Assembly: GCA_036172245.1 (NCBI GenBank)
Contig: JAYWIR010000002.1
Span: 4,464,001-4,528,000, forward strand
Direction of reading: 5' to 3'
Length of the DNA: 64,000 bases
Source: Raillietiella orientalis
Lineage: Eukaryota
Part shown: one piece after another, positions 9,401 to 42,700 of the stretch
Numbering within the stretch: the first letter of the stretch is position 1
How the letters are laid out: every line of letters begins with the position of its first letter
The notes under the pieces: model-generated
What the model was told of the DNA's origin: nothing
Database searches by the model: none
What the model saw: the letters and a program-made list of their open reading frames with translations, nothing else
Program-made: the position numbers and the translations under genes

Positions 9401-9601
9401 AACTACAACTTCCATTGGATTAATTAGGATTCGCCTAGTGAACGATCGTATTCAGTAATGGGAGGATTTTCGGATGATTCTCTGCATTAATTTTCAGTGT
9501 TTATAGCAATGTGTGTGCGTGTGCATGTGTATGTGTTTTTTGGTATTTGAAAGGCCGGTAGCGACCTCATGGAGAGATCGTTACTACTGGCCTAGGATGA
9601 T

Positions 9602-10391
9602 TATCACCCGGTTCTGCAGAGGCATTTATTACATAAAGCAATAAAAATAAATTGGAGACATACATTGGTACACACTAATGCATTTTTATTTTTATTCACG
9701 TGCAATAAACCTGCCGAAGAGCGTTGCGCAGACCGGCGAGGTTCGCTTCGGCGGGAGGGGGAGAGGAAAAGTAAACTCACAAAACAGGGGAGGGAGGGAC
9801 CGAGGGAGGGATCATGGTATGCCGCCCAACGTCCTCTGCATCCTATTCAGAAAGATCCGCGCCCAGTGGATGGCGTCCCTGCCATTTTGACCTCTTCTTC
9901 TGGCATTCCAGACCACTGCGATCCCTCAAGGACAGCGGAGAACTGCGAGGGGAGCGGCTGGTGGCAGTGCAGCACCACGCACGAAGAGGAGTAGGAAAAT
10001 GTCCCTGGGGCCGCTCGCCGGGAATCCTAGGGTCGTCGCGAGGCGATCCCAAAGGGGTCGGAGGGCACAACAGTCCAACAGCAGGTGCGTGAGGGTCTTC
10101 CCGCACATGTCGCACCGAGCGTCCATACTCCTCCCCGCGTCCAATGGTGAAGGCGCGCTTGGCACGGGATTCCCCCATGCAACACCGGCAACACAGACTC
10201 CTGCCAATTGAGGGGAGGGCGCCACTGTTCCAGCACGCTGAGAGCCAGTTCCCCTTTTCCGGAGGGTGCCGAGCAGCTCCCCCCAGCGTGCAATTCCGTG
10301 GGATGGGACACTCGGGGTCGCAGCGTAGTCACTTCCCGAGCTGTCATCCCCAATACTTTCTTCTTTGCTGCTATGCAGCATGTATTAGCAT
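9602..10391 (-). mobile_element. 5'-truncated Tx1/L1-like non-LTR retrotransposon, 14-bp TSD
   Basis: ORF2 C-terminal zinc-finger remnant CDMCGKTLTHLLLDCCALRPLW. TSD tggcctaggatgat at 9588-9601 and 10392-10405. Confidence 0.85.
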
Positions 10392-39700: not shown

Positions 39701-42700
39701 GCACCAGTTTCTGGATTGTGCGATTGCCCTGCTGAGTGTCCGGGAACGCCTTACTGCGGCCCTGCCACTCCCGATGGGCAACGGCGGAGAGGTCTTGCGG
39801 CGCCTCTTCAGGTGCGACTCGATGTCGCCTGTAGCTTCCCCCCTTGCATCTCCGTGCTGTCTTCGTGGGATTACAGCGGCGAGAAACTGAGCTAAAAAGG
39901 AGCTAGTCGAACAGTGAGGTCATCGCAATCGTCCGCTCGTCCGTGAGCAAGTCGGCAAGATGGCCACATCTCTGCCAACGAAAGGAGGAAGCGGTCCACA
40001 TCCTCCAGAGGGTGCTGAGGACACCCGGAAGAAATCTGCGGTCCCTTCCCCTCTTCCCCCTTCAAACATTTTCAAACTGAACTTTTGTGCTTTTTTTTGT
40101 TTTTGTTTACCCCTTTCCCCACTCCTCCTGTGCGGACTTCATCGAGGGAGCTGCGCACGAGAAGCAGCACCTCCGAGGAGTTTCCTTTCGCAGTGGTGCT
40201 GTGAAACCACTATGAAGAAAGGACATTTTTATATTTTATGTGACTGTGTTTTTGGTAATATTTTGAATAATAAACTCCCCGTCGTGACCGGGTGACAATT
40301 CTCCCTCTGTGCGGTTTCCATGCTTACAACCCGCGGCAGCCGAGCTCGTCTACAGGCTTAACGTTGCTCACTACCCAAATTTGCCGAACAAGGAGTCCTC
40401 GAAGACAGAAGTGCTTGCAGCACGCAGGCAGATCAGTTTCTTAGGGAAGCATGTTTTTCTTTTCCTTTCCTCTTCTCCAAAGGAAGATTTGAGACTTCAT
40501 CTCGGGTGAGAGACCACCCATACGCTTGCACACTTTACTGGAAACATCTTTCCATGGCAGGAAGAGGTTTGAAAGCTTCGTCCTTGTTCGAAAGATCATC
40601 GGAGGAAATTCTTCCCGATAGCCTTCTTCTGAGACCTACTGTATTGACGGTAGGCGAGGACTGGTTTCTTCTTCTTTTCCCTTTAAGGAACCAGTAGGCG
40701 AGGGAGGAGGAGTATTCATTTTTTTAGAAAGTTAGAGTGCCCACAGCCAGAGACTGCCACACGTCTCTGATGACCTGGAGGGTCCATGGCTTTCGACCCC
40801 AGTGATCCTTCGACCTGAGAGATTCATCTCGAAGATGATGCACCGCCATCTCCTGCTTCCTGCCTTTCATGAGAACTGCGCGCTCACGTGCTCCTATGTG
40901 AAGAGGGAGCAATGCATAGGTACGATAGAAGCAACCCTCTCCTAGGCCCGAGTGCATTCGCCGGGGATGAATTACGAAGCGATGCGGAAAAGTAGGGATG
41001 GGTTGCAGCACCGAAACGCCTGCGTCGACGGAATAACCCGCTTCTTGGAAACGCCTCGCGGACGAGCTGCCGCGTAAGAAATCGTTGCTGGTAGCACTCG
41101 TTTTTCGATGTCGTTCGTGCTGGAGCAAGGGTTGATCCTGCTGCCCGATTTGTTTACGCAAACTGAGAGCAGGTGGAGAGAGCTCAAGTGCGGGGGGAAC
41201 CCAGATTTCAGAACAGAAAGGAGGTCTTACCGACAGCAGTAGCTGTTTTCGACGTCGGGCAGTTGGTGCAGTCGCCGATCCCAAACACGTTAGGGTACTT
41301 CTTGTGCTGGAGCGTGTGCATGTCGACATCCAGGAATCCAGAGTCGTCCGCCAGGTCGCTTGATTTCTTCAGGGCACTCGTTGGCCCCATCGGCGGAGTG
41401 ACGTGTAACAGATCGTACTGAAATCCAGTGAAGTTGGTCTCCCTCCCACCCCCGACCTTAGCGCAGCTTCACGACGTACCAACCTTCATAGCTTCCTTCC
41501 GGCTTTTGTCGTTCAGATGCGAAAATGTGGCCTCCTTTGTCGAGCTGTTTACCTCCTCCAGGTCCAGGCGGAAGTTGGTGCGGATGCCTCGCCTCCTGAC
41601 GACAGCTTCCAGCGCCTTAGCGTATTTCGGAACGGCAAACATCCCCGGCAAAGAAGTGTTGTAGATGACCCGGTAATCCGCGATGCGCCTCTGGATACAG
41701 CATGAGGAAGCGGAAGGAAAGCAGGTGCACGCCACTCGCTCAGGTAGTGGGAGCACAGACGGGAGGCGAAGAAGGAATGAGAACCAGAGATTCTGGAAAT
41801 CCTTTCAAGTTCTTCTGCTTTCGCTCTTTTTCTTTTTTCTTTGGTTCGCCAAGTGATGAAGAACCGCCCACCTCCTTAGGAGGAATTTACAAAGATCTTT
41901 AACTCTGCCCACGCTACTCGAGGATGCGTGGGACTCTTCGAGTTAGGAGGACCACCCTATGAATCCAGGAAAGGTTCCACAGGAAGGAGTCGGTTCCTCT
42001 TACGTTTGGTAGGGGAACCTCGAATGGATCTCTCTCTCTGGTTGTCTTCGAAGGGAGTCCCGGAGGAACAAGGAGAATAAGGAAGAAGTTCTTCTTTATT
42101 CTCCTTGAAGGGAACACCTGGAAGGGATCCGCTCCGTTTCCTCCCCTGAAGGGAACCCCGAAGGGACGCTTCCAAATTTTTCTGAAGGGCACAACCTCGA
42201 AGGGAGCAGCATACTTTTGACCCTCTGGAGGGAGCGCACATAATACAATCGGAAGGGTACTGGTAGCTTCCGATCATTCGACTGCAACGAGCAAGCACCA
42301 CTCTTCCTTCCCAAGATGGTTTCGCGTGCTCGAAGGGTGTCTTCCCGTTGCTGCCATGGAGTTCCACAGGCGACTCTCCGCTCAGAAGGGAACTTCCACC
42401 TGGGCACATGGAGTTGCTCGGTTCCTTACCCTCGTTTCCACGTGGTTCTGAGACTCGACGCGAAATGCAGGGCTCCCATACTTCTCGCGGATTTCTCCTC
42501 GAACCGGTACGTCGGCGCTCCCGGGAAGAATAGGTACCGGACCGAATAAACTCGCGCCATAGGAAGCTCGAATTCCAGAAGAAGGTTGGAGAGGGAGCTG
42601 CCCCGGTTCGCTCAGGAGCATCCCAAAAATGGCCGCCGAAAAACGGTGGCGGTGCGTCCGCCTCTGGCAGCTCCCGAGCGTGTACCAGGGAAGGGAGAAG

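Follow-up and report, generated by a model that had tools for sequence, protein, structure and literature searches.

In the passages cited here, the monomers of the mouse L1 5′ untranslated region (UTR) are described as tandem promoter repeats (PMC9022269, PMC6454616), and NARTc as a truncated version of L1Tc (PMC5814959). Template switching is given as the origin of the chimeric retrogenes U6/L1 and, in Magnaporthe, WEIRD/MGL (PMC2104539, PMC4476161, PMC6789731), and ribozymes resembling that of hepatitis delta virus (HDV) are reported from the 5′ termini of R2 and L1Tc (PMC3185411, PMC3774820). Here, these systems, together with the retrozymes (PMC4918200, PMC7229834, bioRxiv 10.64898/2026.07.22.740005), are set beside a ~0.9-kb repeat, which we call the head, and a second repeat of ~0.87 kb, the tail, in Raillietiella orientalis. 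All results for heads and tails come from one 64-kb stretch of genomic DNA (contig JAYWIR010000002.1, positions 4,464,001 to 4,528,000; hereafter, the window), in which there are four heads in total, named A to D. The original prediction, made from the letters of the window, had described the head as a family of tetraloop and triloop hairpins with compensatory changes, selected for single-stranded structure and representing either a mobile element or a non-coding RNA (ncRNA).

Most likely, the repeat represents the front end of elements of a LINE-type family (long interspersed nuclear element) that has decayed, not a new structured RNA, and as such it is fairly ordinary. We assign a probability of roughly 0.62 to the head being a non-coding leader at the 5′ end of a lineage-specific LINE-type (non-LTR, i.e., without long terminal repeats) retroposon family. 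The head is assigned to this position because in copies A and B it is continuous with a tail, the repeat for which a zf-RVT match shows LINE descent, and because its copies are truncated variably at the 5′ end.

Self-BLAST of the window yielded four diverged head copies with 67–90% pairwise identity: A aligns with B (11527–11718 versus 19804–19615; 90%, E 4e-69) and with D (10417–10600 versus 41814–42010; 67%, E 8e-15), B with C (19681–20045 versus 37697–37342; 71%, E 8e-34) and with D (19682–19946 versus 42230–41949; 71%, E 9e-27), and C with D (37314–37515 versus 41833–42024; 70%, E 1.5e-17). The four copies, the MAFFT alignment of which spans ~550 columns, were used to build an nhmmer head model, and with this model no fifth head was found in the window (next match, E 0.98). 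Both searches place the four copies near the positions originally predicted. The starts of copies A and C fall on one and the same base (model positions 1–4), that of copy D at ~50 and that of copy B at 108.

Head A lies on the plus strand in three pieces. The first (9549–9601; nhmmer 9550–9602) is the 5′ end with its terminal hairpin (GGCCGGTAG...CTACTGGCC), the second spans 10406–10600 (the BLAST match to D given above; alignment A5), and the third (11410–11718) is an array of ~41-nt units, one unit longer than in B, C and D, without the final ~140 nt present in B and C. The interruption of this copy had been noted before, and it consists of two insertions of ~0.8 kb with perfect target site duplications (TSDs), both of which are minus-strand tails and not head sequence. 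The first, ins1 (9602–10391, 790 bp), is flanked by a 14-bp TSD (9588–9601 and 10392–10405) and matches the tail model at 9601–10389 with E 9e-202, a value which is not independent, ins1 being among the six copies used to build that model; the second, ins2 (10601–11400, 800 bp), which holds a zf-RVT match, is flanked by a 9-bp TSD (10592–10600 and 11401–11409). Head B (19500–20060, minus strand; nhmmer 20060–19441) is 5′-truncated and is 92% identical to head A over the last 190 nt (174/190). Head C begins on the plus strand at 36984–37002, where it runs to a foreign insert of 171 bp (37003–37173), and continues with its main part at 37174–37870, homology to head B ending at ~37870. Head D (41789–42241, plus strand; model positions 50–494) is truncated at both ends; its extension beyond 42241 is not significant (score 18, equalled by 12% of shuffles).

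Each of the two full-length 5′ ends is preceded, at a distance of 7–8 nt, by a T run (regions 9523–9548 and 36961–36983); it is T6 after a TG-rich microsatellite at head A and T16 at head C, and a similar TG-rich stretch followed by T7 recurs at 13134–13160. A supposed third 5′ end at 51660–51706 (family D5) is merely a T run and was discarded.

We consider the head non-coding, because its copies share no ORF (open reading frame) and no head ORF among the 118 ORFs scanned in the window has a Pfam match. The frame that runs from head A into the tail (11047–11874, then 11878–12279) was rejected as coding, as it differs from the true tail frame in other tails. ORF and Pfam scans and an inverted-repeat search thus uphold the earlier statement that there is no shared ORF and no terminal inverted repeat, and with ARAGORN no tRNA-like head was found.

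The tails supply the LINE connection. Junction alignments show that, at 11718/11719, head A gives way without a gap to a full tail of the same orientation. This tail (11719–12590, plus strand; tail-model positions 11–908) consists of a decayed ORF2 C-terminus and a 3′ UTR, ending AATAAA...GGGTGGTAA. Head B passes at ~19500, likewise without a gap and in the same orientation, into the start of a tail (19396–19499, minus strand; model match 19479–19396, positions 56–141, E 4.9e-07), of which the remainder is absent. The local alignment of A with B reaches a score of 29 here, whereas shuffles reach 25 at most. Downstream of head C, in the same orientation at a distance of 1.66 kb, lies tail tC (39529–40298, plus strand), which matches the model independently (E 3.8e-72) from position 174. 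A direct junction is therefore seen in two of the four heads (A and B; D is truncated), and all three heads that retain a 3′ end have a same-orientation tail downstream. Since it sits 5′ of a LINE-derived module, the head is in the position of a leader.

The window contains 11 tail copies or fragments, six of which built the model, the other five being independent matches (E 3.8e-72 to 4.9e-07). A tail comprises the ~180 decayed last codons of a reverse transcriptase (RT) ORF with a zinc knuckle (~0.55 kb), followed by the 3′ UTR. The zf-RVT domain is the zinc-binding region with which LINE reverse transcriptases end; the ins2 ORF at 10907–11263 (minus strand) matches it with E 5.7e-07 (30.5 bits, Pfam cut-off 27.5), and tC does so weakly (E 0.18). 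The 3′ terminus is constant, AATAAA-N(12-14)-GGGTGAYAA, five tails ending at model positions 905–908, and the 5′ starts vary (positions 3–11, 174, 282, 476 and 640). We looked for TSDs with at most one mismatch and no gaps at seven elements (ins1, ins2, t20, t25, t48 and the composites A and C) and found them at three, all of them tail-only: ins1 (14/14), ins2 (9/9) and t20 (20691–21575; 13/14, i.e., 14 bp with one mismatch). By the same standard, there was none at t25 or t48. Because of the constant 3′ end, the variable 5′ truncation and the TSDs in three copies, the tail is taken to have spread by target-primed reverse transcription.

Some further features of the tails were recorded. Each nick site has a T before it (...GATGAT^GG, ...TTGGT^AG and, on the opposite strand, ...TTGCT^CG of t20), and the zinc-knuckle region of t25 carries a perfect 12-bp x 3 tandem duplication at 25970–26006 (TAAGAGACCTTC). 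Within the ~0.75 kb of head A there are two antisense tails, and a third stands at its end, compared with about one tail per 5 kb window-wide, as though tails clustered locally or preferred the head as a target.

The family is considered lineage-specific, because the tail ORF has just one relative outside the window: an exhaustive profile search of 1.8 billion representative proteins returned a single 87-amino-acid (aa) JGI fragment on a 2.9-kb contig, two further profile matches being discarded as low-complexity. A word-based protein search with the tail ORF for longer proteins returned no relatives. In metagenomes, a 17-nt head motif was found at 120 loci, none of which fitted the head or tail models outside the seed, and the P0001 scan gave no confirmed match.

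The internal organisation of the head fits a leader built of subrepeats. Autocorrelation revealed a 41/82-nt periodicity of the head core in all four copies (z 2.9–5.2 against 200 shuffles), the lags being 82/41 (A, B), 42/83 (C) and 39/41 (D). Tandem Repeats Finder (TRF) gave no 41-nt array; cutting the heads at the recurring GAAG produced units of 31–53 nt that can be aligned to one degenerate consensus. The extra unit of head A falls in columns 99–132 of alignment A4. What had been described as indels of whole hairpins are, by periodicity and unit alignments, gains and losses of these ~41-nt tandem units. The recurrent CCGAAG-type loop motif, on the other hand, is confirmed, with strand specificity: the counts in five head pieces are 19 for CCGNAG (~3.2 expected) and three for its reverse complement (~3.1 expected), compared with four occurrences in five tails (~5.5 expected). 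The excess on one strand follows from the motif coming twice per ~41-nt unit.

The unit that we see has two modules, a head of ~0.75–0.9 kb, made up of a short 5′ hairpin and five to six ~41-nt subrepeats, and, after it, a tail of ~0.87 kb. The head would function both at the DNA level and as the transcript's 5′ end, and would provide an internal promoter of which the subrepeats would be the units, in the manner of the mouse L1 monomers, and the CCGAAG-type palindromes would belong to the subrepeat consensus and would not be separately selected RNA hairpins. Mouse L1 monomers measure ~200 bp. As far as the cited descriptions of mouse L1 go, the head shares with it a non-coding LINE 5′ region, tandem subrepeats that vary in number, and 5′-truncated copies; it differs in that there is no sequence relationship, that its units are of ~41 nt, and that no intact ORF lies downstream of it. 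The chain-of-tetraloop look of the repeat would thus be that of a tandem-subrepeat leader, and the head and tail modules can be used for masking and counting the family.

Pfam scans of the 118 window ORFs with 110 aa or more, and of 54 ORFs with 45 aa or more that adjoin heads and tails, found neither an RT core (RVT_1) nor an endonuclease domain. The copies in the window are most probably deletion derivatives, non-autonomous and reduced to head plus tail, because no such domain adjoins any head or tail; an autonomous LINE elsewhere would mobilise them in trans. Another non-autonomous LINE derivative that keeps the parental ends is known from RIME/ingi. NARTc, in relation to L1Tc, is similarly short, composed of parental 5′ and 3′ parts without RT or endonuclease, and presumably trans-mobilised. 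It differs from the present case in three respects: the head is far longer than the 77-nt Pr77, the tail retains ~0.55 kb of decayed ORF, and no ribozyme was detected.

Several observations weigh against the head being the leader of one simple composite element. No full-length element with ORFs (ORF1/ORF2, RT, endonuclease) follows any of the four heads, and no TSD surrounds the composites A (9549–12590) or C (36984–40298). Heads A and B are 92% identical, whereas the tail starts attached to them are 71% identical (75/105), the tail start of B being 74–78% identical to unrelated tails; this contrast argues against a simple common descent of one composite. The homology of head C ends at 37870, within ~12 nt of where the TSD-bounded tail-only copies start, as though the two modules could be separated, and the tail-only 5′ ends cluster at the head/tail boundary, which misfits a simple composite. 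The promoter role of the head is one that we purely infer, and the sample amounts to four heads in one window. Taken as they stand, these data suggest a modular make-up in which head and tail were brought together on more than one occasion. Such joining could have come about by recombination between subfamilies, by 5′-end replacement, or by template switching as in chimeric retrogenes. 5′-end replacement is known for L1 lineages. If modular joining holds genome-wide, the family would provide a natural case of template switching or 5′-end replacement in non-LTR retrotransposons.

The same observations lend themselves to an explanation which we regard as unlikely, yet as the best of the alternatives: the head would be a separate transcript, either an abundant ncRNA or a non-autonomous retroposon of its own, the tail would be a discrete retroposon, and the head–tail composites would be template-switch chimeras, formed when the RT, having reached the 5′ end of a tail RNA, jumped onto a head RNA. 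Favourable to it are the starts of the TSD-bounded, tail-only ins2, t20 and ins1, all within ~70 nt of the head/tail boundary (t48 possibly being a fourth), the stop of head C at that boundary, followed by unrelated sequence, and the differing junction points of A and B, with their unequal identities in head and tail. Moreover, comparable chimeric retrogenes have been published (PMC2104539, PMC4476161, PMC6789731): U6/L1 and WEIRD/MGL, as presented there, also have a 5′ partner fused to a LINE-derived 3′ partner at variable junction points; around the composites studied here, unlike those, no TSDs were found. That all three heads with a 3′ end have a same-orientation tail downstream speaks against this explanation, and there are no TSDs around head C alone either. 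Furthermore, the tail fragment of B measures ~105 nt, so that the identity contrast draws on little sequence, and the head folds are not unusually stable (z −0.77 to −2.19, see below).

A bolder and still less probable version would have the head as a free, abundant ncRNA of ~0.8 kb without a polymerase III (pol III) head, parasitising a LINE by being joined into chimeric insertions, through template switching at the 5′ end of a short LINE-derived tail RNA. If this were true, the head would be a modular parasite resembling a SINE (short interspersed nuclear element), head and tail being recombined in each generation, and the 41-nt palindromic subrepeats might serve roles at the RNA level, such as protein binding or RT stalling. 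No pol III head of the SINE kind was found: ARAGORN reported 0 genes in the window, and there was no Rfam match to tRNA, 5S or 7SL RNA.

Returning to the LINE leader, it has still to be weighed against the central claim of the original prediction, a selected structure. We consider it very improbable that the head functions as a structured RNA or cleaves itself, be it as a retrozyme-like circle, a 5′ HDV-like ribozyme or another ncRNA. In favour of this, the 5′ hairpin of copy A is strong (−22.4 kcal/mol, z −4.2), and the six substitutions that separate the stems of A and C all preserve standard or G-U pairs on the plus strand. All six are transitions, leaving three G-U pairs, as decay alone would produce; with just two sequences, the stem changes are compatible with weak selection on a plus-strand RNA and, equally, with ordinary decay. 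In copy C, after removal of the insert in silico, the hairpin (−11.0 kcal/mol, z −0.02) is no better than shuffled sequences. The compensatory first stem is not borne out by these two sequences. A palindrome in columns 173–193 of alignment A4, in which symmetry is retained with different letters in all four copies, is at most suggestive of structure.

The fold z-scores of head copies C and B are weak. For copy C, z is −2.19 on the plus strand (equalled by 0/20 shuffles) and −1.74 for its minus strand (2/20), and for copy B, −0.77 on the element strand (22/100) and −1.56 on the other strand (6/100). RNAalifold returned covariation terms of −1.0 and +0.31 kcal/mol for two head alignments, with both sides changed in 8 of 42 and 2 of 31 pairs, respectively. 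The eight double-change pairs of the first alignment exceed column shuffles (3.8 ± 1.3; 0/500 as many) and slid controls (2–5), a count made on a structure that RNAalifold had picked on the same four sequences. Five control windows of four aligned tails contain 4–10 double-change pairs out of 20–66; since these controls give as many, the head is not special in this respect and, as far as four sequences allow, there is no significant covariation. Heads (z −0.8 to 2.4) show no greater enrichment of mini-hairpins with a 3-bp stem and a 4-nt loop than tails do (−1.6 to 2.7).

Comparison with known RNA families points the same way. The Rfam scan of the window at gathering thresholds returned nothing, a scan by E-value (E up to 5) returned nothing in the head copies, and scans of B and C with lax filters (E up to 10) returned only sub-threshold, unrelated families that differed between the copies. 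No head copy has an Rfam match to a hammerhead, HDV-like, twister or similar ribozyme. HDV-like ribozymes are known from LINE 5′ ends and, in the cited accounts of R2 and L1Tc (PMC3185411, PMC3774820), resemble the head in that a non-LTR retrotransposon carries them, as structured elements, right at its 5′ end. Unlike these, the head has no Rfam HDV-like match, its two full 5′ ends being interrupted by insertions (A at 9602, C at 37003), so that no intact end was scanned; an HDV-like fold of the 5′ end, drawn by eye, was dropped, as the spacing that follows the putative P3 and precedes P1.1 did not fit. Retrozymes, as characterised in the cited texts (PMC4918200, PMC7229834, bioRxiv 10.64898/2026.07.22.740005), are like the head non-autonomous, non-coding, several hundred nt long and highly self-complementary. 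The head differs from them in that it has no hammerheads, its genomic copies are not in tandem, and it is linked to a LINE zf-RVT tail instead of LTR or Penelope-like partners. The retrozyme-like reading and that of a single-stranded DNA rolling-circle element are not supported, there being no Rfam hammerhead match and no rolling-circle hallmark at the ends, which read AAAGG... and ...CCCGAA (by eye, no profile used). Of the prediction that this is a mobile element, the option of a retroelement leader stands, with the head continuous with a LINE 3′ module in A and B, and the selected structure finds no support beyond controls.

Finally, an origin of the head in a different class of transposons, for instance a non-autonomous Helitron or Helentron with central tandem repeats which adjoins tails by nesting or capture, deserves very little credence: such Helentrons with internal tandem repeats are described, at least in the passages cited (PMC4067079, PMC7492417), the window is heavily nested (two tails inside head A), and T runs precede both full 5′ ends by 7–8 nt, but the termini given above come with no terminal inverted repeat and lack any obvious signature of a 3′ hairpin plus terminus, heads are truncated variably at the 5′ end, which is a trait of retroposons, and the head–tail junction is found again in A and B at different loci.

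The window itself is nuclear animal DNA, containing host exons, a mitochondrial insert and a transposase remnant. On the minus strand, exons at 4278–5161 encode a Tudor domain (E 2.2e-13) together with a weak match to a CCCH zinc finger or Torus, and they probably belong to a single host gene. A nuclear insert of mitochondrial DNA extends over 22000–24800 (minus strand), with an ND1 fragment at 22518–22943 (Pfam NADHdh, E 3.9e-20), stretches resembling large-subunit rRNA at 23305–23811, and a GC skew reaching −0.78 per 200 bp, the coding strand being G+T-rich.

Two inverted repeats of 751 bp, 98% complementary, lie at 30745–31495 and 34618–35368, with a spacing of 3.1 kb in which there is no ORF of at least 150 aa. 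They appear to be a separate mobile family, a foldback element or one with long terminal inverted repeats, because a 161-bp relative of an arm sits in head copy C: the foreign insert in that head matches the arms by BLAST (37008–37168 versus 31004–31164; 74%, E 1e-19). At 35596–36756, an inverted repeat pair of 239 bp (93%) surrounds a weak remnant of a mariner-type Transposase_1 (35852–36430, minus strand; Pfam E 9.6e-05, below the cut-off) and several inner inverted repeats, one of which, at 36120–36271, has a sub-threshold match to the Rfam MIR5284 hairpin.

Exons of a sulfide:quinone oxidoreductase (SQOR) gene occupy 41470–43720 on the minus strand; the best matches of its 90-aa exon (42763–43032) are arthropod and nematode SQOR proteins, with 53–57% identity. 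Head copy D is situated in an intron of this gene, on the opposite strand.

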